64,000 nt of DNA from positions 7,606-71,605 of IMG/VR virus record IMGVR_UViG_3300027667_000003; one strand, given 5' to 3'. Numbering within the stretch: the first letter of the stretch is position 1; every line of letters starts with the position of its first letter. The notes under the pieces are model-generated. The model saw only the letters and a list, made by a program, of their open reading frames with translations. It had not been told where the DNA came from and did no database searches. The translations under genes and the position numbers were made by a program. The DNA is from a virus. Below are positions 53,067 to 64,000 of the stretch, one piece after another.

Positions 53067-54152
53067 TTACTTCCTCTCCCATTCTACCAGCTTCTGCCAG
53101 ATTGTCAAGTGTTTTCTTTGAAGATACTGAAGCCAATGCTTTACACCCTCATCGTTCTGCCTTTCAATGCATCGGAAGCCTTCCAAAGCCGCACAGGATT
53201 GGGACAAAAGATTCACACCCACCCTTGCTATGTCCATCGCATCGTCAGAATCTGCTTTCCAATCCTCGGGCACCCAAGTGATAGCACTACTTACTACACT
53301 GGGTACACCACAATAGATCCCGTCGGCCGTGACCATGTTAAACGATTCAGTATAAGAAGGCTGCAATAGCAGATCCATCTTACCTACGATTTCTACAAAC
53401 TCTTCCCAAGGTCGCCAGGGATGCTTAACCAATGTAATGCCTTGAATTCCACTACACATAGCTACGATTGCCCGACCGACATCTCCGCCGTCACCTTCTC
53501 CACCGAAACTCATGTGTATTTCAACTGGAACATCCAATATCGCTTGAATAGCTGCTGCGCCGGCGGCCGCTGTCATAAAATTCTTGAGGGGTCGAATTGC
53601 TCCAAATATCCCGATCTTAACGGTACTAACACCGTCCCAGGTTTTTTCAACTACACCTGATAGGGGATAAAGATTAGGAAGATAAACGATTTTTGTCTTA
53701 TAAACTTTTTCCATCCAACGTACAAATCGAAGAGAATTACCGCCCACTCGAATGTTATCATGTGTCTTAGCTAATTCTAAAGCGTCCAGCAAATGTCGCA
53801 TACCCAAAGGATCGGCCTGAAGAAAACCCACATTGGAATGAGATTCTATCACAAATTGAATGCGAGGAAAACCTTCAATAAGGCTCTCCATATCCATCTC
53901 ACTCAACCAAGGTGCTGAAATGATCACATGGGTAAAAGAATGCTGATGTTCTCTTTCGTAATCCTTTATTTCATCTACCAAATCAATATTATGCTTTACC
54001 GGAAGAACAGATGTTTTAATACCATGTCTTCGAAGTACACGGGCGTTTGTTAAAGCTGCTACGTTCAGGCCTATATGTGAAAGACCCGTCCAACTCGCGA
54101 AGTTTTTAAACGCAATGCCGACTCTTAATTCATCTTTCGGTATCTCTCTCAT
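53067..54152 (-). CDS. GT4-like (GT-B) glycosyltransferase
   Basis: IGIFGAIRPLKN, MDLLLQPSYTESFNMVTADGIYCGVPSV. Confidence 0.8.
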   Translation of the reverse strand: MREIPKDELRVGIAFKNFASWTGLSHIGLNVAALTNARVLRRHGIKTSVLPVKHNIDLVDEIKDYEREHQHSFTHVIISAPWLSEMDMESLIEGFPRIQFVIESHSNVGFLQADPLGMRHLLDALELAKTHDNIRVGGNSLRFVRWMEKVYKTKIVYLPNLYPLSGVVEKTWDGVSTVKIGIFGAIRPLKNFMTAAAGAAAIQAILDVPVEIHMSFGGEGDGGDVGRAIVAMCSGIQGITLVKHPWRPWEEFVEIVGKMDLLLQPSYTESFNMVTADGIYCGVPSVVSSAITWVPEDWKADSDDAMDIARVGVNLLSQSCAALEGFRCIERQNDEGVKHWLQYLQRKHLTIWQKLVEWERK

Positions 54153-54175: not shown

Positions 54176-57100
54176 TTATTTACCTTTCAAAATTGCTCGA
54201 ACATAATTTTTTGTTTCTTCGGGTGTATGATCTAACCAATTATCACCCCATTTATCAACTGCATTTTGAACTCTATCTGGACTCCAATTGTATGCTGCTA
54301 AAGCTCGATCCCAGCGACCGAACTGATTGTGAAGTTGTGCCATGAGTTTCGCGCCGCCTGCTATATTCTGAACGGGATCGAAAGAATCTTGAACACCCAA
54401 AGCTTTCGCGGTTGGGTCCATGAGTTGCATCACCCCTTTGGCCCCTTTTTTACTGATTGCTCGGGGGTTTAAACCCGATTCTTGACGAGCCTGAGCGCGG
54501 AAGATATCCTGCGGGATACCATTGTCAGTTGCAGCCCGATCAATCAAACTAGGAATGTCTGTCTCTCTTCCCTCAGATTTAAAAGCGGTTTTTGTGGGTT
54601 GGAGTTCTTGTGTTTTAACTGCGGGTTTCTCTTCTTTCTTAGTCAAACCGGCTAACGCGCCTAATCCTCCGGCCGCAACTAATGCGCCCGCTAGAGGGTA
54701 GTTTGGTTTTTCTGTCTTTTTATTTAACTGGGTAGGGCTTTGTCCAACTCGGCTCTCGCGGCCGCTTTCTGTTCTGGCGACAGCCCTTTCACTACGTTCT
54801 TCAGTGCCCCCACCAACTCGCGGGGCGTTCCCTTGGCCGGAATTTTTGGATTGCTCATCTTTAATCTCCTTGGCGATCTGCGCGACTCGCTCCTTACTCA
54901 TGTGATGAGTTGTGGGCAGATCTTCTTCGCGCTGGCCGGAATACTTTTTAACTATATCAGCGAATCCGGGCTGTGTCAATACCTCGCGGGCTCGATTCTT
55001 CGCGGCCTCGATCTTGGCTACGGCATCGTCGTAAGTATACCCCAAAGCGCTTAAAAGACTGTGCGCCTCATGAATATCGCCTTTCATGCCCGCATTACTT
55101 TCCATGGGTGTGCCACTGAAAGCTTCTTCTCCCGCGCCGCCACCCATCAATAAAGTCAGAAAATCGTGAATGTGCGGAACAACCTTATCGTAGTCAATTC
55201 CATGTTTCGTTGCGCCCCAAGGATCTAAGTCTATGCTAACGGACGCGGCCGTGTTATCTACACGATTGTCCGGATGACGATCACTACGAATGCCGTCGTC
55301 TGTCCCCAAGCCCATAGAATCACCTACAAGCGCATGACCTAGCTCGTGGTGAATGTCATCCATAACTTCGCCCGGATAGTGCACAGTTTCAGGCAACCTC
55401 TCTAAAAGAGTTTTCTGAAGTTTAAACGAAGTGGGGTTGGGTTGAGATAGATCTAAACGATAAATCCCGTTCTCAACATCTACGGGATAACCTTTTTTCT
55501 GAAGAGCTTTCCACGCACTCGCGGCCGATGGGCTGGTTTCGCCCTTGGCATCTGAAGTAAAAAACTTAGCGCCTTGAGTCTGAGCTTTGTTCGCGGCCTC
55601 CAAAATCAGCTTTTGACCGTAGCCTTTTCCGCGTTCGCCTTCATCTAACCAACTGGAATTGACGGACGCATTTTCGCCTTTATGGGTGAAGTACAACGCA
55701 CCCATGTCTTCGTCGCCGATACGTAATTTGGCTTCGTTGATACCTTCTTTACTGCCCCCGTGTACTATCTCGGGAGCGGGCGTTGTGGCTGCCGCCCCCT
55801 TATTAGGGTTTTCAACTTCTCCGAAACCCTCGGGCTGCACCGTACGGCCCATTCTTACACCACCCGGTTTAGTGGGGATTGCAGCTTCTTTCGATGGGCC
55901 GGCCTTCTGCATGCGCTCCAATGCCTTACGCGTAAGTACATTGGGGTTCTCTTGTTGATCTCTCCACCAATCTGCGCCCAAAGAAGACAACTCCCCTATG
56001 ATAGCGCCCGGTGCTCCGCCTAATACCGCACCGGCGATCGCAGGCATCGCACCCCAACCTTTACGTCCGGTCAACCCTTTCCAGACGCTCCACTTTCCTG
56101 CGTCCTCTGATCTCTTGGCTGCATCGCGCAGTGCATCTCGAACATCAATGAGGCCTGCTTCTTGTCTCCGCCACTCTTGAACACCTTCGACACCCAAATC
56201 TTCAAACTTCTGATCAATCGCCTCTCGAAGAGCCCTATTGGCAACTGCTTTAGCATAAACTTCGGCAGAAGGAACTTTGCCCGCTTCGCCAAATGCAGGA
56301 GTAGAATCTTCTTTAAATCTTTGACGAATGTTTTCCGCACCGTAAAGATCAGGAGTCGGAGCAACGCGATTGACAGTTGGAGTCATCTCACCGGTGTTAG
56401 GATCTTTCGCCATCTTAGTTTCCAATCCTAACATCTTCATAACCGATGAAGAAGCTTTTTCGATTTCGTCCGGACTATATTTACGTTCAGCTTTATTCCA
56501 ACCTTCGTTCAAAGCATTTTGAATTTCAGTTTCAACGCCCTCCATACGGGCTTGCGGTAAACCGCGCATGTCCGCGGCTTTAGCCTTCAACTGAGACTCA
56601 ATACCGTTACGGTGGTTTTCGATCGCCTCGGCCATATCCACCGGAGTTTCAACGTTCGGATTTTTGTTGGCTATCACCGATAACTGTGGCATAGCATCTT
56701 TCAACGTAGTACGAAAATCATCGGCGACTAAACCTTTACCGGGTTTGATAGCTTTATACAAATTATCTGCGGCTGCTTCTAAATGCTCTGCCGGAGTTGC
56801 TTCTGGAGTTTTATCTGGAATCAAAGCTGCGGCCATCTTCGGAATAGCAGAAGAAACTTTACTAGCTGCTCGGCCCAAAGCTGCGTCGGCTGCGGCACCG
56901 GCTTTCGTCCAAGGCTGGGCGGCCGCCTCTCCTGGTGCTGTTTTAGTAGTGGCATGTTGAGTAGCCAGAGTAGACATGGCCCCGCTTAAAACGGCATGAG
57001 TGAGTTGATATTCTGCTTCTGGGGCATCGCCTGCATCGTAGGCTTCTTTAAAAGCTTTCATATGCTTATAGGCATTAGCGATTGTATCGCCGGCGAACCC

Positions 57101-57790
57101 CGCGCTGACCAAGCGGCTAGCCATACCCAAAGCTTGGGGCGACTCAACCATGCCCATTCCGCCCGTAGCAACCATCGTCGCCAACATCTGAGGACTGACA
57201 AAACTCTGGGCCGCCTCAGCGATCGCTTTCCCCATAGGGTGTTTCTTTTTATCCACAAACTGTGCAGCGTCTACCGGAGGTTTTGCCAAAGAACTTTTAA
57301 TTTCCTCATGAGCACCCTCACCTTTAAAATCTGGGTTGACTTTTTGAATAAATTTCTCAAGAGGACTACCCGGAATAACATGCGGACGCTCAGAGTCCCA
57401 AATCTTTCCTAATCCTTGTCGTACATTTCCATGAAGAATGTCTGACGCACCGGAAATCTCAGTAGATGCTTCTTTCGTTGGAGCTTCATTCGCAGATCCT
57501 AATACCGTATTAGGTCCGGTAAATAGTTTCCCTATTGTAGATTGAGGAGGTGCAGCCGTCGCAGTGGGTGCAATCGTTCCGCCGAACTGTTTAACCAAAT
57601 CGTTATAGTTGGCATGTGAAGCAACGTCGGCCGAAGCACCGGCTGGAGCCTTTGAAACCGGAGCATCGGTAGGTGCAACAGTCTGGGTAGAGGATGCAGC
57701 CGGAGCAGGGGTCGCAGCTACCGTTCCACCAAACTGCTTTGCTAACGCGGCATAATCCGGAGTTTCTTGTCCGTTCTGATCGTCAGGCAT
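54176..57790 (-). CDS. large virion ejection protein with GNAT-like, M41-like metallopeptidase and lytic transglycosylase domains
   Basis: RGKGYGQKL (about 55443-55742), HHELGH...MGGGAGEE (about 54950-55370), QESG...GAKGVMQLM...ALAAYN...ETKNYV (about 54179-54560). Confidence 0.8.
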   Translation of the reverse strand: MPDDQNGQETPDYAALAKQFGGTVAATPAPAASSTQTVAPTDAPVSKAPAGASADVASHANYNDLVKQFGGTIAPTATAAPPQSTIGKLFTGPNTVLGSANEAPTKEASTEISGASDILHGNVRQGLGKIWDSERPHVIPGSPLEKFIQKVNPDFKGEGAHEEIKSSLAKPPVDAAQFVDKKKHPMGKAIAEAAQSFVSPQMLATMVATGGMGMVESPQALGMASRLVSAGFAGDTIANAYKHMKAFKEAYDAGDAPEAEYQLTHAVLSGAMSTLATQHATTKTAPGEAAAQPWTKAGAAADAALGRAASKVSSAIPKMAAALIPDKTPEATPAEHLEAAADNLYKAIKPGKGLVADDFRTTLKDAMPQLSVIANKNPNVETPVDMAEAIENHRNGIESQLKAKAADMRGLPQARMEGVETEIQNALNEGWNKAERKYSPDEIEKASSSVMKMLGLETKMAKDPNTGEMTPTVNRVAPTPDLYGAENIRQRFKEDSTPAFGEAGKVPSAEVYAKAVANRALREAIDQKFEDLGVEGVQEWRRQEAGLIDVRDALRDAAKRSEDAGKWSVWKGLTGRKGWGAMPAIAGAVLGGAPGAIIGELSSLGADWWRDQQENPNVLTRKALERMQKAGPSKEAAIPTKPGGVRMGRTVQPEGFGEVENPNKGAAATTPAPEIVHGGSKEGINEAKLRIGDEDMGALYFTHKGENASVNSSWLDEGERGKGYGQKLILEAANKAQTQGAKFFTSDAKGETSPSAASAWKALQKKGYPVDVENGIYRLDLSQPNPTSFKLQKTLLERLPETVHYPGEVMDDIHHELGHALVGDSMGLGTDDGIRSDRHPDNRVDNTAASVSIDLDPWGATKHGIDYDKVVPHIHDFLTLLMGGGAGEEAFSGTPMESNAGMKGDIHEAHSLLSALGYTYDDAVAKIEAAKNRAREVLTQPGFADIVKKYSGQREEDLPTTHHMSKERVAQIAKEIKDEQSKNSGQGNAPRVGGGTEERSERAVARTESGRESRVGQSPTQLNKKTEKPNYPLAGALVAAGGLGALAGLTKKEEKPAVKTQELQPTKTAFKSEGRETDIPSLIDRAATDNGIPQDIFRAQARQESGLNPRAISKKGAKGVMQLMDPTAKALGVQDSFDPVQNIAGGAKLMAQLHNQFGRWDRALAAYNWSPDRVQNAVDKWGDNWLDHTPEETKNYVRAILKGK

Positions 57791-59889
57791 TATTGTTTGA
57801 CTCCTGATTGAGCGGCCAAAGCCGCCTTAAACTGATCCGCTTGTTCCTGTGTATTGAAATGAGCGGAGTGGCCGTCCGGAAGGGGTACCTCAATTGTAGC
57901 CTGAGCCGCTTGTCCTTTATTTCGAATATACTGCGCAGCTTCGATCTGCTGAGGACTAACACCCGGCATCGGTTTGTTCCAACGAGAAGAAGGCATCGCA
58001 TCTTTCCATTCATTTTGATATTGGGAAACTTTTTCCATAATGCGATCATTCTGTTCTTCGACTGCGGCTTGCTTAGAGCCTTGAGGATCCAGTGTTCTGA
58101 AGACCGAAGGATCCAAAGAATTCTTAGCTCCCTCGATGTCTTGATTACTAGGGGCATTACCGCCAGCAAGAAATCGAGCTAACTCCATAGAAGCGTCATT
58201 CAAATCAGCCTGGCGTTTTGCATAATTCACTCCGCCGATGAGAGCACCCGGAAGTTTATTATCATCATACAATGCTTTCAAGTGAACTAAAGAAGTACCG
58301 GCAGAGTTCAACTGATTGGCAACTTGTCCGCTCGTGAATTTTTTAGTGGCCTCAACATATCCACCGATCTTACTAACATCAAGTTGAGGATCAGAGAGTG
58401 CCGCTTCTGCAAGGAACTGCTGACCGTCTTTACTCGATAGCATACGCTGTAGCTGGCCGGGAGGCAATTGACCGTTGATAAAAGCCTGCATCACAGGTTG
58501 ACGAGACGGAGGCAAAGATTTAAGATAAGGCTGACCGGTTAAATTAGGATCGCCTTCAACTTCCAACGGCTTGTTCTTAGCCGCAGTAGCGTTGGCCTTA
58601 ATATTCTCCAAAGATGATTTTTCCCATTGATCAATACTCTTGTCAATGATCTTTTGACCCATGCCATTCTTAACGGAGTCCAACTGCTTCTGAACAGCTT
58701 GAGCATGATCGGTCGGCTGACCGGTCTTAGAATCAATTTCCTTAGCGGCATCCTGCATATTCTTCATTGCCAGTCCGGGATCACCTTTAGCATCATTGAG
58801 CCAAGGCAAAAACGTGTGGCCGGCTTCTCGAAACTCTGCTTTATCCTGAAGCTCCGCCAACTTCTCTTTCGTGGTACCACCTTCAAGTGCAGCTTGAGAG
58901 GCTGCATTTTCTTCCACAACTTTAAGCCCGATTTGAGCACGCAATGCACCCGCATCTCGGGGCTGAAGAACATCGCCTTCTTTAAAATCTTTACCCAAAT
59001 ATTTCTTGGCCTGAGATGCAATACTTGCATTAATGGTTAATGGATCACCCCAAGTCAAAGCAGAATAGGTTGCTTGACGTTGCGGTGCCCCCGTAGGCTT
59101 CCCGTTGCGATCAGTGCCTTGAATAATATCGCCGTTAGGGTCAGTCACATTGCGCCAACCGTCTTGATGAAGATTCTGATCAGACAACCACTTCATTCCT
59201 TGGGGATCCGAATCTGATTTGTGCTGAGCAGCCAATTGCTTCAATTCCATATCCGTCATGTTAGCCTGAATCACTGTTTGACCGGCATCTTTCTGTGCAG
59301 TTTCCCAAGGCTTGTAGATCTTATTATACATTTCATCTTGCGCTTCTGAAGTACTATGACGCAAAGCATCCTGAGTCTTGACACCCCGAATAAGAGTGTC
59401 AGCATCCTGAGCATCTTGCTTCATCTTGAGTTCTTTAGTCTTATAGTCGTTTTCAAACTCTTGCTGCTTAGCTTGAGAAGCCTGCTTCTTCTGTTCATTC
59501 TGCTGAGCTTGGCGTGCTTCCATCACTTTACCTACACCGTAAAGAGCGCCACCGCCCGCGGGAACTTTCCCGATATTTCCGACTCCCGCCAATGCTGATT
59601 GCAAGCCGCCTACAAGAGCTTTAGCCCAGGCTCCAGGTGCCGACGGATCGCTGGCAGTTTTAATAAGTTTATCGGCATTGCGAGCAAACTGGGTGCGCAG
59701 ATCTTCCGATACGCCACCTTTAGGCGGAGGAGGTGGAAGGCCACCCAATGAAGATGCTCCACCCGTTGATGTGGTATCCATTGGAAGAGCACCCGTAGTA
59801 TCCGGTGCTCCCGTCGAAGGAGCCGCAGTCGATGCCGCAGGATCGGTTTGTCCACCTAAAAGTTGTTCTGGTGATAATTCCAATGCCAT
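57790..59889 (-). CDS. internal virion / DNA ejection protein
   Basis: Ala/Gln/Gly-rich helical 699-aa protein between the pilot-like gene and the transglycosylase gene; podovirus-like order. Confidence 0.6.
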   Translation of the reverse strand: MALELSPEQLLGGQTDPAASTAAPSTGAPDTTGALPMDTTSTGGASSLGGLPPPPPKGGVSEDLRTQFARNADKLIKTASDPSAPGAWAKALVGGLQSALAGVGNIGKVPAGGGALYGVGKVMEARQAQQNEQKKQASQAKQQEFENDYKTKELKMKQDAQDADTLIRGVKTQDALRHSTSEAQDEMYNKIYKPWETAQKDAGQTVIQANMTDMELKQLAAQHKSDSDPQGMKWLSDQNLHQDGWRNVTDPNGDIIQGTDRNGKPTGAPQRQATYSALTWGDPLTINASIASQAKKYLGKDFKEGDVLQPRDAGALRAQIGLKVVEENAASQAALEGGTTKEKLAELQDKAEFREAGHTFLPWLNDAKGDPGLAMKNMQDAAKEIDSKTGQPTDHAQAVQKQLDSVKNGMGQKIIDKSIDQWEKSSLENIKANATAAKNKPLEVEGDPNLTGQPYLKSLPPSRQPVMQAFINGQLPPGQLQRMLSSKDGQQFLAEAALSDPQLDVSKIGGYVEATKKFTSGQVANQLNSAGTSLVHLKALYDDNKLPGALIGGVNYAKRQADLNDASMELARFLAGGNAPSNQDIEGAKNSLDPSVFRTLDPQGSKQAAVEEQNDRIMEKVSQYQNEWKDAMPSSRWNKPMPGVSPQQIEAAQYIRNKGQAAQATIEVPLPDGHSAHFNTQEQADQFKAALAAQSGVKQ

Positions 59890-59905
59890 TGTAAAACTCC
59901 TTTAA

Positions 59906-60556
59906 TTATCCAGCTAATGACTTTAAACCACCCTGAAGTCCACCACCGCCCATCGCACCTGCGCCGAATGTTGCAGCATCCATACCCAAACCTACAATTC
60001 CTCCGGCAATATCCGCTTCCATTTGACCTTGCTGTTGAGAAATTGCACTAGCTGATCCGAAAGCCTGACCTTGCGCCGTAGTAGTTGCGCCGGCGAAACC
60101 CAAGGGATTCTGAATACCTGCCAATGTCTGATATCCGCCAATAGCTGTCTCAGTGTTCCGCTCAGCCTGAGCTTGATTGGCTAATTGAATCTGAGCCTGT
60201 TCTGTCGATAACTGTCCTGCGCCTTGACTTGCAATACCGGCTTTAATCTGAGCATCTACACCCGATTCTAATCCACTGTCTCCACCGCGGCCAGCTAATT
60301 GATTATTTGTAGCTCGGGCAGCCTTTGCATAGTTAGCGCCCGTAGTATCAATTGCAGAAGTGTTAAGCGCAGCCAAAGTATTTGCGTCAAATCCAGGAAG
60401 CAATTTACCTTGAGATACTCCTGAGAGAATATTCCCTAAGGAACTCAATGTCATGGTCTGCCCAGCAAATCTTGATGAAAAATCTTGCGACAGAAGATTT
60501 GAAAAACTGGCCTGTTGGCCTGCGATCTGCTTCTCTTGTCCTGACGGTCCGCACAC
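59906..60556 (-). CDS. small internal virion (DNA pilot-like) protein
   Basis: Gly/Ala/Gln/Ser-rich with C-terminal Gly zipper GGIVGLGMDAATFGAGAMGGGG. Confidence 0.6.
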   Translation of the reverse strand: MCGPSGQEKQIAGQQASFSNLLSQDFSSRFAGQTMTLSSLGNILSGVSQGKLLPGFDANTLAALNTSAIDTTGANYAKAARATNNQLAGRGGDSGLESGVDAQIKAGIASQGAGQLSTEQAQIQLANQAQAERNTETAIGGYQTLAGIQNPLGFAGATTTAQGQAFGSASAISQQQGQMEADIAGGIVGLGMDAATFGAGAMGGGGLQGGLKSLAG

Positions 60557-60569
60557 AGTGCTACCTCTC

Positions 60570-60986
60570 TTAAAACATAAAAATATAATCGTTGGTATTT
60601 TCTACTGACTTAAAACCCATTCTATCCATAAAACGAATCAACAAAGGTGATACAGATTCAAACACAAATCCTTTAGCCCCTTCTTGCTTTGCCTTAAAAG
60701 CTAAAGCTGGAATAGCTCGCGATATCACCCGTATCACTCTAGTTTTTGTGACTTCATTTTCCGGTGCAAACTGAGTGTGCAATCGAACTAATTCCCCTTC
60801 TAAATCGAAACGAAAGTACATCGTTGGCCCACCTGCATCTTCTATACAACCGGACAAAACTCCTTGACCGGTCAGCCACCATCCAGGCCCATCGATCGAT
60901 GCTTTCGCACAATGATATGGATCGGCTAGTGCCCAACGAAGAATCTGCGGTTGATCATCCGGAAGTGTGGAAGTGAATTTAATCAT
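60570..60986 (-). CDS. GNAT-like protein in the virion module
   Basis: RLHTQF...FESVSPLLIRFMDRMGFK; position before the pilot gene as in podoviruses; TAATG overlap at 60986. Confidence 0.5.
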   Translation of the reverse strand: MIKFTSTLPDDQPQILRWALADPYHCAKASIDGPGWWLTGQGVLSGCIEDAGGPTMYFRFDLEGELVRLHTQFAPENEVTKTRVIRVISRAIPALAFKAKQEGAKGFVFESVSPLLIRFMDRMGFKSVENTNDYIFMF

Positions 60987-62389
60987 TAGGCTGGATTCCA
61001 AATAAAATCAAAAAAATCTATGGCAATTTGTTTGTTCTGAGTAGGGGATGCACTCGTATCGTTTCCAAACAAAAATGCTGGAACAACTGCTGGAAAACCC
61101 GTAGCAACTTGCGACGTATTCACAACAGTAGAAATAGTTGCTGTGGGCACTGACCAAGATAAATGATCCTTGTCTCCAACGTATTGGAGGGGAAACGTCC
61201 CATTTAAAGTTGCCAAAGTCCCGGTAAATCCTGTGAAAGTAACTAAAGAACCCGTACTAAATGGCCCGTCGTTTCCTGCAAAAGAAGCGGTAGCTACGTG
61301 ATTATTTACTATAGCCGAGCCCGATCCGCCGGAATTAAGAGCGAATGTCGGCACCGCCAATGTTGCCGTAGCTGAGGATCCGTCAGTTCCTGACAAAGAA
61401 AAATTAACAGATCCTGACCCGTTGCTTGACATCGTAAGCGTATACCAAGTAAACTCAGTGGGAACAATTGTGGTGTTAAAGGTGTTGCCTTGAACATTGC
61501 TAACTGAACCAGATGTAACATCATTTGCAACGCATTCAAACCAAAAGGTTGAATCACCAATAGAAGGGGATGTCGTATCCGTATCGAACCTCAACCAGGC
61601 TCCTGCTGCTGGCCTTCTAAAAACATTTTCTGAAGCGTTAGAAGGGCTTATATAACCCACATATAAACTAGTTTGAACTAAAGGAAATGCTGATGCTGTT
61701 GCTGATCCGGCGGGATCTGGATACCGTTTTACTTGAAAAATCATTGTGGAGGTCCAAACAGGGTAATCAAATAAAGGCCACAATGCGTTTTCAGATCCCG
61801 CTTGGCCGGCTTGACTAATAGAAGGAAAAGTCAACTCTGTCGTACTCGTGCCACTAGAAGGAGATGAACTATTTGGAAAATTAAATGTTCCTAAATGTGG
61901 AAAGCCCCCCGAAGATGTATAAGCCAAAGTAAATGTAGATCCTGCACAATTCCATTTTAATTCCCCACCAGGAATCGCATTTGCAACAGCATTATCCGTA
62001 CCGAAAGCAAAGTGATCTATAAACTGAATAGCATTGGGTACAAAAGTTGAAGTTACAGGAACTTGTTTCGGCAAACCTGCAATCGCCTGATTGACAATTG
62101 TCGTGGCAACGCCTATCGCCTTGGCGTTATCACCCGCACCGCCTTGAACCGGCATGAGTCTTACTGTTCCTAAACCAGGAGCGGTATCTGTTTTAGCCAA
62201 ATCCGTAGCTAACCCGAAATTAGGAGGCAGAGGACCAGAATTAAATGGATCGCGGCCTGTTGGAGTTGGAGGACCACCTACGGGAAGATTGGGATTAATG
62301 GGCGGAGCATCCACTGGCTGCCAATTTTCCGGCATACCATAATTATTTTCCGGTCCGTCTTCTTGAGGGGGCTTCTTTTTGTCTGGCAT
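60986..62389 (-). CDS. Ser/Thr-rich beta-structured virion protein (fibre/lectin-like) with Pro-rich N-terminus
   Basis: Composition and position in the structural arm; start set at MPDKKK. Confidence 0.55.
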   Translation of the reverse strand: MPDKKKPPQEDGPENNYGMPENWQPVDAPPINPNLPVGGPPTPTGRDPFNSGPLPPNFGLATDLAKTDTAPGLGTVRLMPVQGGAGDNAKAIGVATTIVNQAIAGLPKQVPVTSTFVPNAIQFIDHFAFGTDNAVANAIPGGELKWNCAGSTFTLAYTSSGGFPHLGTFNFPNSSSPSSGTSTTELTFPSISQAGQAGSENALWPLFDYPVWTSTMIFQVKRYPDPAGSATASAFPLVQTSLYVGYISPSNASENVFRRPAAGAWLRFDTDTTSPSIGDSTFWFECVANDVTSGSVSNVQGNTFNTTIVPTEFTWYTLTMSSNGSGSVNFSLSGTDGSSATATLAVPTFALNSGGSGSAIVNNHVATASFAGNDGPFSTGSLVTFTGFTGTLATLNGTFPLQYVGDKDHLSWSVPTATISTVVNTSQVATGFPAVVPAFLFGNDTSASPTQNKQIAIDFFDFIWNPA

Positions 62390-62390
62390 T

Positions 62391-63998
62391 TTAAAGTTCA
62401 ATCATCAAACGGCCAAATATGGTTAAATCAAAAATCTCATCGCCCGTATCTGTTGTACCGTAATCCACTCGCAATTGCAGATGACGACACCGAGCCAACG
62501 ACCCTGTTTGTGCAAAATAATACCGCAGGGGCTGATAACTTGATGGAGTGATCGTTCGACCATAAAGAGATGGGGGATCAAAAACAGGGCTCGGTATATT
62601 TGTAAATGGGCCTGAAATCTCATTTAAGAGATAACTCACTGTGGGTGTGAATCCCGCAGAGAAATCCCCCTCCACAAACTTCAAAAGTGCCAAAGATCCC
62701 GGATGCGCAAGGACTATACTCCCCATGACAAAGAACGCGTCGTACGAAATTCCGTTATCCGTGAATACATTCAAATTCCTTTCCAGAATCTGAAAACACC
62801 CGTTTTGATTTGCAGTGTTGCCCCCACCTCCGCTAGAAGACGCAGGGGGCACTGTAATAGAATTACTGAGTAAAGTTACCGCACCGTTTTGAGCCAACAG
62901 TCGGCCGCTAGTGGAAGCATTTGTGCCTACACTGATCGATGTCAAAGCTAAAATTGTACCCCCAAAAATAGATGAGGTTCCTAATGTGGCAGAAGATCCG
63001 ACTTGCCAGAATACATTAAATGCCGTCGCTCCATTTGTTAAAAGTACACTGGAGCCTACACCCGTAATAAGAGTTGTAGCCATCTGGAACACATAATTTC
63101 CTGCTCCATTTAGAGTAACGGTTTGTCCCGCTCCCAACGAGAATGTTCCACTCAAACTTGAATAGATACCAGGAGAAAGTGTCTGACCGTCCAATGCCGT
63201 TGGAATAGTTACGGCTCCTAACAGACCCGCAGCTTGGTTATAAGCGGTAGTCAAATCTAATTTAGCCTGAACCGCCGCTGGATTGTCTATGTTCGTAGCA
63301 CCTGTTACTGTGGGTGATCCAGTTACCGCGCTGCCCGGACTAAGCCCTAAATCCCCAAAGATAAAAGTGGGTCCGGAATTCGTAATAGTTGATCCGGCTA
63401 AAACACCATAGGTGGAAGCCGACAAAAGATTTACAGAAGGAGGAACTCCAACAATCCCTCCACCTCCGCCTGCACCCAGTGTAGATTTTGTACCCACAAG
63501 TAATTTCTTGATTCCCGGTGCAACTTCAACCGATTGAACCATGCGAGCGCCATTTGTAATTGTAGCGAAGGGGCTCCAAATTGCCTCAGGCCCATTTGAA
63601 CCACCCGGTACTTGATGCGGATTACAGCGCCACCAACCGGTTGAACCGTCCGCAACATAAAAAGCGTTATCCACACCAGCTTGTTGAATAGCCAAATAAC
63701 CCGCGGAAGGATCCAAAAGAGTTAATTGATCCCCAATTGGGAAGCCCGCATTTGATAACTGCAAAGAAGGATTAATGATCTTAAGTTGAGAGTCCGAAGA
63801 AAAGAAATATATTTCTCCCGCATAGATATCCAAGAAATTGTAGCTCAGCATTCCAATACCAGGTGCTAATGTCACTTGATAGAATGAATTTGTCTGCGGA
63901 CCACCACCAATAAATTCAACGCTGTCCGTAAGAAATGTGACTAATCCCTGTGAGTTTTTAACCACTCGGGTTACAGGAGCCAAGAATGGAAAATTATC
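62391..63998 (-). CDS. virion structural protein (tail/DNA-stabilisation-like), 5' partial, containing a DUF3494 ice-binding-type domain
   Basis: Frame is open to the window edge (DNFPFLAPVTR...); aa 184-378 of the listed ORF match the DUF3494 pattern. Confidence 0.8.
   Translation of the reverse strand, partial: DNFPFLAPVTRVVKNSQGLVTFLTDSVEFIGGGPQTNSFYQVTLAPGIGMLSYNFLDIYAGEIYFFSSDSQLKIINPSLQLSNAGFPIGDQLTLLDPSAGYLAIQQAGVDNAFYVADGSTGWWRCNPHQVPGGSNGPEAIWSPFATITNGARMVQSVEVAPGIKKLLVGTKSTLGAGGGGGIVGVPPSVNLLSASTYGVLAGSTITNSGPTFIFGDLGLSPGSAVTGSPTVTGATNIDNPAAVQAKLDLTTAYNQAAGLLGAVTIPTALDGQTLSPGIYSSLSGTFSLGAGQTVTLNGAGNYVFQMATTLITGVGSSVLLTNGATAFNVFWQVGSSATLGTSSIFGGTILALTSISVGTNASTSGRLLAQNGAVTLLSNSITVPPASSSGGGGNTANQNGCFQILERNLNVFTDNGISYDAFFVMGSIVLAHPGSLALLKFVEGDFSAGFTPTVSYLLNEISGPFTNIPSPVFDPPSLYGRTITPSSYQPLRYYFAQTGSLARCRHLQLRVDYGTTDTGDEIFDLTIFGRLMIEL
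62850..63434 (-). other. DUF3494 / IBP-1 ice-binding-type beta-solenoid domain inserted between Gly-rich linkers
   Basis: YGVLAGSTITNSG, GDLGLSPG, QAKLDLTTAYNQAA, LDGQTLSPGIY, VFQMATTL, VLLTNGATAFNVFWQVGSSATLGT, GTILALTSI, GRLLAQNGAVTL. Confidence 0.9.
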
Positions 63999-64000
63999 TG

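Follow-up and report, generated by a model that had tools for sequence, protein, structure and literature searches.

A DUF3494 ice-binding-type domain carried as an inserted cassette in the predicted tail nozzle protein of a podovirus-like phage

We examined a virion gene that contains a domain of the DUF3494 (ice-binding) family, with respect to which particle protein carries it and what the domain might do there. The stretch of DNA analyzed (the window; 64,000 nucleotides) comprises bases 7606-71605 of the 110,892-bp IMG/VR virus record IMGVR_UViG_3300027667_000003, which is rated complete by CheckV. An earlier note, made from the sequence alone, had proposed that window positions 62850-63434 encode a full DUF3494 domain bounded by flexible linkers, within a virion structural gene upstream of ejection genes, and that the domain might bind ice, limit freeze damage, or act as a surface adhesin. 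On the minus strand, these positions translate without a stop into 195 residues, which are residues 1130-1324 of a 1476-amino acid protein (P0003). The gene extends past the end of the window, which holds only the last 535 residues, and as a whole occupies positions 69996-74426 of the genome; the N terminus of P0003 aligns with the N termini of its homologues.

The Pfam profile PF11999 (Ice_binding, DUF3494) matched the 195-residue segment from end to end (profile positions 1-208 of 208) with an E value of 5.2e-47 and a score of 160.6 bits (cut-off, 28.7), and matched full-length P0003 at residues 1140-1323 with an E value of 3.7e-46 and 157.9 bits. The domain noted earlier is thus confirmed, at a level well past chance. 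In an AlphaFold2 model of residues 880-1476, the part of P0003 that was modeled, the domain has predicted local distance difference test (pLDDT) scores of 92-98 and both linkers score below 50; the host portion of this model is poor (pLDDT <50), and the placement of the domain against the host β-propeller described below is unreadable there. The domain is predicted to form a right-handed triangular β-solenoid with a long helix, and such a helix packed on the solenoid is a hallmark of the ice-binding protein 1 (IBP-1) fold. The modeled domain superposes on all 25 of the 25 solved DUF3494 entries (Z 30-34; root mean square deviation (rmsd), 1.0-1.6 Å). The closest solved sequence is EfcIBP (6EIO; phmmer E value of 1.8e-40), which has the same fold (Z 34.3, rmsd of 1.6 Å over 208 residues, 44% identity), as does AnpIBP (7BWX/7BWY; Z 33.8, rmsd of 1.0 Å, 42% identity), and all three lack a capping head and have the long helix and a flat, hydroxyl-rich B face. 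EfcIBP and AnpIBP, whose ice activity has been measured, come from cold-adapted cells and are secreted as free proteins of a single domain, whereas the phage domain is an internal cassette known from sequence and model; we found neither a free-standing protein nor an N-terminal signal peptide of the kind that secreted IBPs have.

The putative ice-binding site was mapped by alignment with AnpIBP. The B-face rows in the phage domain are STITNS, SAVT, TTLITG, SSATLG, TSISVG, and GAVTLL, with the outward positions S,T,T,S / G,A,T,L / T,S,S,G / S,S,T,G / T,T,I,G; the flat B face is thus small-sided and mostly hydroxyl-bearing, with nearly all outward positions occupied by Gly, Ala, Ser, or Thr. Ser-1276 and Thr-1279 align with AnpIBP Ser-153 and Thr-156, and the row Ser-153 to Gly-158 is identical in the phage domain. 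In AnpIBP, for which the rows of the ice-binding site have been published, tyrosine substitutions at Ser-153 and Thr-156 lower ice binding (PMC7277481). Further, the coils of the fold stack in the order β1-β6-β5-β4-β3-β2 (PMC7277481), which places both termini at one end of the solenoid, and a fold of this kind should therefore be readily inserted into loops.

The protein that carries the domain could not be recognized by sequence: a profile of the host family found no relative in the PDB, sequence similarity to solved nozzle proteins was undetectable, and the only match to PHROGs, a weak one to "head decoration", fell on Trp-rich repeats at residues 600-662 of P0003. The fold search was decisive. 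For the insert-free homologue P0011 (61% identical to P0003), modeled at full length with AlphaFold2 (pLDDT of 85.5 and predicted TM score of 0.71), the top Foldseek matches (all with a probability of 1.00) were podovirus nozzle or hub chains, namely those of Pa223, cyanophage A4, SU10, P22 gp10, Sf6, VP1, crAss001, and T7 gp12. Structural alignment of the P0011 model gave Z 25.1 with Pa223 (437 residues, 3.4 Å), Z 24.2 with P22 gp10 (421 of 471 residues), and Z 22-24 with crAss001, SU10, and VP1. The minus-strand arm runs from terminase through an SU10-type portal, a weak major-head match, homing endonucleases, and tail genes to the nozzle gene, which is followed by four genes and then by a gene for a 1204-amino acid protein with an SLT transglycosylase domain (E value of 7e-25). 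The carrier gene thus lies past the portal, capsid, and tail genes and before the internal or ejection proteins, as the genes of solved podovirus nozzles do, and a downstream gene set that closes with an SLT protein fits ejection proteins, as expected; the earlier placement of the domain in a virion gene upstream of ejection genes agrees with this. In T7, gp12-gp16 likewise run from the nozzle to large internal proteins, the last of which has an SLT domain, and the arm described here parallels that order. We conclude from the model that the 1476-amino acid protein is the predicted tail hub/nozzle of a podovirus-like phage, of the P22 gp10, T7 gp12, and SU10 class. It shares with P22 gp10, T7 gp12, the SU10 nozzle, the crAss001 muzzle, and the Pa223 and VP1 tail proteins a β-propeller core with N- and C-terminal elements (Z 22-25), but solved nozzles have 470-800 amino acids, whereas members of this family have 1100-1480 and contain Trp-rich repeat insertions and cassette sites. 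We know of no DUF3494 domain in any of the solved nozzle proteins that match the insert-free model. Two other features of P0003 (L003:1000-5427:-) were noted: two tandem small domains of 85 amino acids with the motif GFxNxxNNG at an N-terminal variable site (approximately residues 105-280), and the Trp-rich repeats (TxDGxVxW), which span approximately residues 330-760 and weakly match the "head decoration" PHROG.

The sole homologue in a cultured phage is gp19 of Tunturiibacter phage Tunturi_3 (PP885686), which aligns to 78% of the query with 31% identity. Tunturi_3, a podovirus whose tail measures 21 nm, was isolated from Arctic tundra soil on a host of the Acidobacteriota (PMC11924767). Its structural module is syntenic with the one described here, gp19-gp25 paralleling the order from nozzle to SLT protein, but PF11999 is found nowhere in its genome, which has neither P0003 with its domain nor the second carrier gene described below. 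The label "head decoration protein" on gp19 is probably a misannotation, likely derived from the weak PHROG match to the Trp-rich repeats; the fold indicates a nozzle.

To define the insertion, we searched for relatives with residues 880-1476 of P0003. The search returned 413 proteins, most of them of 1100-1300 amino acids and without a Pfam domain. The homologues lacking an insert between LLVG and QILER, for which the earlier note had suggested looking, were present in large numbers (more than 100, of 1100-1300 amino acids), and PF11999 was found in seven nozzle-family proteins among the top 120 matches (approximately 7 of the roughly 119 nozzle homologues listed). In the alignment, insert-free homologues pass from GIKKLLVG through a loop of 4-8 residues to QILERNLxVFTDNGxxYDA, whereas P0003, P0005, P0008, and P0009 have approximately 220 extra residues within this loop; Leu-1108 and Gly-1110 ahead of the insert are invariant in 20 of 20 aligned homologues, as are Arg-1348, Thr-1354, and Asp-1355 past it in the alignment of 20 homologues. 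By alignment, the DUF3494 domain in P0003 is a true insertion with precise junctions. The flexible linkers, first noted as GAGGGGG and SSSGGGG, were recovered as LGAGGGGGIVGVPPS before the domain and PPASSSGGGGNTANQNG after it, both with pLDDT <50. In the P0011 model, the splice falls between strands 980-986 and 992-998, and generic WD40-type propellers align to this model up to approximately residue 1000. The splice site is thereby predicted to be a hairpin loop of the last β-propeller blade, with the domain held between disordered Gly-rich linkers. The GC content of the insert, both overall and at third codon positions, equals that of its flanks, which argues that the insert is not a recent foreign arrival; it appears to be an old, maintained feature.

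With regard to how such a cassette might move, we note the following observations. First, the DNA of the two Gly linkers contains a 13-nt direct repeat (12 of 13 positions identical; window 62821-62833 and 63457-63469, 636 nt apart) that brackets the cassette; the repeat could be a scar or a substrate of recombination, or could simply reflect the Gly codons, and we draw no conclusion from it. Second, GIY-YIG homing-endonuclease genes are scattered through the structural module (L003:5561-6142 (-), L003:14000-14740 (-), and L009:14478-15116), outside the window, one lying directly upstream of the nozzle gene and another, with NUMOD3, separating the capsid genes from the tail genes; a relative has a NUMOD3 gene immediately past its nozzle gene. 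Homing endonucleases could promote local recombination that moves cassettes.

The domain is found at other sites and in other virion proteins. The proteins most closely related to P0003, namely P0006 and P0007, have it after the strand ILxRDLxVYTDG, not before this strand, and their two domains are sister to that of P0003 (support of 97 in the Shimodaira-Hasegawa-like approximate likelihood ratio test, SH-aLRT). In P0105 and P0115, PF11999 matches residues 98-292, where P0003 has its two tandem small domains, and in the tree these DUF3494 domains belong to a lineage different from that of the P0003 insert, which points to an independent acquisition. Further, the same genome encodes a second carrier outside the window, the 388-amino acid P0004 (G000:C1:98717-99883 (-), corresponding to L004:13718-14884; PF11999 E value of 2e-37), in which the cassette, flanked by GGGSGGGG and GSGSGGS linkers, lies inside a small conserved phage protein of approximately 125-160 amino acids. 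Insert-free homologues of P0004, namely P0245 (124 amino acids) and P0247 (158 amino acids), were obtained in an exhaustive search with the C-terminal flank and align to both flanks; Atlas feature matches to the small host protein all score below 0.9. Both carriers are present in a complete sister genome (G002; 111.5 kb, with terminal repeats). As side observations on this second locus, neither the sister phage nor Tunturi_3 has a match to the 126-amino acid neighbor of P0004, and a phage-like ENA contig of 34.9 kb (L175) that encodes an insert-free P0004 homologue also encodes GT11 and GT6 glycosyltransferases and GDP-sugar enzymes.

When IMG/VR was scanned with a DUF3494 alignment, 152 viral stretches were found. 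The 82 carrier open reading frames (ORFs) in IMG/VR range from 217 to 2288 amino acids, with the domain at any position and sometimes repeated. Four of them encode myovirus tail sheath proteins (Phage_sheath_1C or phrog_279) with DUF3494 near the N terminus, one has a tail-fiber match, and one has collagen repeats; three carriers lie on one 103-kb viral contig. We also noted that the L062 contig (117 kb), which encodes one of the sheath carriers, has two further carriers, one of them with a tail-fiber match (L070). A tree that included 80 cellular relatives groups the nozzle inserts with domains of three unrelated phage proteins, in a clade made up of viral sequences only (support of 0.99). 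Outside the nozzle proteins, the nozzle insert is closest (46-51% identity) to P0031 (890 amino acids, on a 4.3-kb contig) and P0188 (575 amino acids), which consist of four and three tandem DUF3494 domains, respectively. With three DUF3494 segments as queries, tblastn found no match at E ≤ 1 among 50,697 deposited phage genomes; this is not evidence of absence, as the low-complexity filter probably masks a domain so rich in Gly, Ser, Thr, and Ala. HMM-based scans of PHROGs likewise gave no match to a DUF3494 family. Judged from these sequences, DUF3494 is a portable plug-in cassette for phage virion proteins (nozzle, sheath, fiber, and a small protein of 125-160 amino acids), and its mobility among virion genes argues for selection as an autonomous surface module.

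Among cellular proteins, the closest domains share 45-57% identity with the phage domain and occur across many soil phyla, of which Acidobacteriota form the largest group; Singulisphaera acidiphila is among the matches. Cellular DUF3494 relatives are typically surface-anchored, by PEP-CTERM, autotransporter, LPXTG, or Big-domain anchors, and many of these surface-anchored proteins come from Acidobacteriota, the host phylum of Tunturi_3. The search for a cellular donor of the phage domain pointed to no single one, as the closest domains span many phyla and the nozzle clade is virus-only. Concerning habitat, the insert-bearing nozzle gene of the sister phage was found in 20 runs from 16 studies, all labeled permafrost or peat metagenome. 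One carrier contig (L092), the only one so placed, comes from a sample (3300030503) that the Tunturi supplement describes as Stordalen palsa peat permafrost.

Nozzle proteins assemble as hexamers that surround the DNA channel. A capless DUF3494 solenoid, plugged into the last-blade propeller loop of the nozzle and tethered by two disordered Gly/Ser linkers, would be present in six copies per particle, and these would project outward from the short tail, because six 22-kDa domains could not fit in the DNA channel. Given the nozzle fold class, the sterics, and the tolerance of the loop to insertions, this six-copy outward display should apply, and display on the virion is well supported. We propose that the domain would act as a particle-surface adhesion pad, the flat B face and the six-fold or higher display of which would give avidity for a periodic surface, and that the pad would hold the virion on the substrate to which the DUF3494 surface proteins of the host itself attach. 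If the ligand is ice, the pad would attach virions to the surfaces of ice or brine films in freezing soil and would not serve as an antifreeze. The anatomy alone, that is, a DUF3494 cassette in a nozzle, we hold with high confidence; that the cassette is a virion-displayed adhesion module we consider fairly probable. Two known arrangements are instructive here. First, SfIBP_1 of Shewanella frigidimarina (6BG8; Z 29.9) is likewise a DUF3494 domain on a larger surface scaffold, and is a proposed ice adhesin serving attachment over freezing-point depression, but its scaffold is the bacterial cell envelope and here it would be the virus particle. Second, Ig-like and other accessory decoration domains, such as T4 Hoc, are non-essential, exposed domains on capsid, sheath, tube, and fiber proteins and are thought to adhere weakly to surfaces. 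The cassette resembles these as an exposed graft in structural proteins but is a β-solenoid instead of an Ig sandwich, and the DUF3494 family has a validated non-biological ligand, ice.

To our knowledge, ice is in fact the sole experimentally validated ligand of the DUF3494 fold. The nearest characterized relatives of the phage domain all bind ice (42-44% identity to two active IBPs), the B face fits, and the sister phage occurs in permafrost and peat. On these sequence grounds, we tentatively name ice as the most likely single ligand, at somewhat less than an even chance. A broader proposal, which we put forward as possible and short of probable, is that phages of freezing soils (peat, permafrost, and tundra) display genuine ice-binding domains multivalently on nozzle, sheath, fibers, and small proteins, and that their virions adhere to the ice surfaces and brine films to which their hosts are restricted. 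Several points weigh against adhesion to ice, or against the display on which it depends. The outward orientation of the loop is deduced from sterics and insertion tolerance. The row SSATLG that is identical to AnpIBP is part of a family-wide signature, NVFWxVGSSAT, and conservation among the six nozzle inserts is scarcely higher in the B-face rows than in the remainder of the domain (0.81 versus 0.76), a comparison that does not discriminate. The insert-free Tunturi_3 also comes from Arctic soil, and a cold habitat therefore does not require the insert. The DNA of the window itself was found only in runs labeled "soil metagenome". Further, DUF3494 proteins occur worldwide, including in the tropics and in hot springs, and may bind various substrates (PMC7783341); family membership therefore does not imply ice binding. 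Overall, the structural part of the earlier interpretation stands, with a cassette in a propeller loop and surface display as the only sterically reasonable reading, but the choice that it offered among ice, freeze protection, and adhesion is undecidable from sequence.

The alternative that best survives keeps the same display anatomy and differs in the ligand only. Here, the six solenoids would bind a repeating structure of the host envelope or exopolysaccharide (EPS), such as acidobacterial EPS, or soil-matrix glycans, and would provide an auxiliary, reversible adsorption beside the tail fibers, ice playing no part. The accessory domains of phage tails usually bind carbohydrates, the cassette occupies variable sites of tail proteins, and DUF3494 is found in a fiber of other lineages. 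The occurrence of DUF3494 in warm habitats means that non-ice ligands must exist, Pfam has a related family named "putative ice-binding-like adhesive domain", and cellular DUF3494 proteins are surface-anchored. Set against this, our literature search found no DUF3494 protein with a demonstrated glycan ligand, the sheath carriers would place the domain along the tail shaft, an atypical position for recognition of a host receptor, and the nearest characterized relatives, as noted, all bind ice. We regard such a host-directed adhesin as a real possibility, though not a probable one.

A cryoprotective role, in which the domain would inhibit ice recrystallization or growth around the particle and thereby limit freeze-thaw damage to the tail, appears unlikely. 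The closest relative, EfcIBP, does cause thermal hysteresis and protects proteins as well as cells against damage by freezing (PMC10992025), and the permafrost and peat origin of the sister phage would suit such a role. However, a potent ice-recrystallization-inhibiting polymer gave phages no extra protection over many freeze-thaw cycles, and its authors concluded that ice growth is not a major mechanism of phage damage (PMC8672357), which specifically weakens the suggestion that the domain limits freeze damage; moreover, six tethered copies per particle amount to a very low bulk concentration. Similarly improbable is a neutral or structural passenger, captured by recombination and tolerated in an exposed loop without a ligand. 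The small share of nozzle homologues that carry the domain (approximately 7 of the roughly 119 listed) and its absence from the cultured relative Tunturi_3 are what such a passenger would predict. Against it, the fold is intact, with no stops or decay, the composition is fully ameliorated, the domain is as conserved among carriers as the host protein (57-71% versus 55-65%), and the domain was gained several times independently, at distinct sites and in distinct virion proteins. Finally, PF11999 genes on contigs of Arctic viral operational taxonomic units, which belong to the same Pfam family and likewise come from viruses of cold habitats, have been read as host-protecting auxiliary metabolic genes (PMC11515562), but a soluble IBP protecting the infected cell is a very remote prospect here, where the domain lies in frame inside an essential nozzle protein of the structural gene module with no signal peptide, is not an independent gene, recurs in P0004 as an insertion in a small conserved phage protein, and, as in at least four sheath proteins and a fiber, forms part of a virion structural protein.

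The features of the locus are collected in Table 1. Some observations on its surroundings touch none of the above. The 1204-amino acid SLT protein also has weak GNAT acetyltransferase matches at approximately residues 691-744, and a GT4-like glycosyltransferase gene (53067-54152 (-)) lies next to its gene, inside the virion arm. Further, the record begins with a 15-nt tandem repeat (GCGCGAACTTGGGCGGC-like units; genome G000:C1:1-60) inside a 115-amino acid ORF.

Table 1. Features of the predicted nozzle gene, its inserted domain, and the neighboring virion genes (window positions), with the sheath carriers on other contigs
Feature	Position	Strand	Residues of P0003	Basis or remark
Predicted tail hub/nozzle gene (P0003), 3' part (last 535 codons and stop)	62391..64000	-		continues to genome position 74426
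Host β-strand GIKKLLVG, last conserved host element ahead of insert	63492..63515	-	1103-1110	homologue alignment
Linker 1, LGAGGGGGIVGVPPS	63435..63479	-	1115-1129	pLDDT <50 up to model residue 244
DUF3494/IBP-1 β-solenoid (predicted), capless EfcIBP/AnpIBP type	62832..63431	-	1131-1330	PF11999, phmmer, AlphaFold2 model
Pfam PF11999 match	62853-63404	-	1140-1323	HMM match
Long α-helix alongside solenoid (predicted), PAAVQAKLDLTTAYNQAA	63228..63281	-	1181-1198	DSSP on model: H302-319
B-face row β4, SSATLG	62979..62996	-	1276-1281	HMMER alignment to 7BWX and published AnpIBP rows
Linker 2, PPASSSGGGGNTANQNG	62799..62849	-	1325-1341	pLDDT <50 at model residues 450-482
Host β-strand QILERNLNVFTDNG, first conserved host element past insert	62751..62792	-	1344-1357	alignment
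C-terminal β-sandwich of predicted nozzle protein	62394..62750	-	1358-1476	kept in all homologues; strands 1009-1124 of P0011 model
Virion genes downstream of nozzle	54176..62401	-		ORFs: 471, 143, 216, 699, 1204 aa
471-aa gene	60986-62401	-		ORF
143-aa gene	60570-61001	-		ORF
216-aa gene	59906-60556	-		ORF
699-aa gene	57790-59889	-		ORF
1204-aa protein, C-terminal SLT transglycosylase domain	54176-57790	-		SLT match, E 7.4e-25
Sheath carriers of DUF3494	L057:7803-10142, L062:7803-10127, L065:4297-7155, L068:7536-10364			IMG/VR contigs

In full-text searches of the literature, we found no phage virion protein described as containing DUF3494 and no characterized example. What is new here is the assignment of the host protein as a predicted nozzle, the repeated independent acquisition of the domain, a second cassette with insert-free relatives in the same genome, the sheath carriers, and a close relative linked to permafrost and peat. 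Even with a glycan as the ligand, a large family of soil podovirus proteins, called "head decoration" in its one cultured member, would be recognized as tail nozzles, DUF3494 would stand as a portable plug-in module of phage virion proteins, and automatic scoring of viral PF11999 genes as host-protecting auxiliary genes should be avoided. Binding of ice by the domain, if it occurs, would represent a new kind of interaction between viruses and their environment, with the particles fixed to ice, a mineral phase, instead of to cells, and the domain would also provide a natural multivalent ice-binding scaffold. Multivalent ice display, if true, would make these the first virus-borne ice adhesins, and the PF11999 "auxiliary metabolic genes" of polar viromes would be virion surface modules. 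Ice binding would then affect how phages persist and find their hosts in frozen soils, which store much of the soil carbon of the planet.

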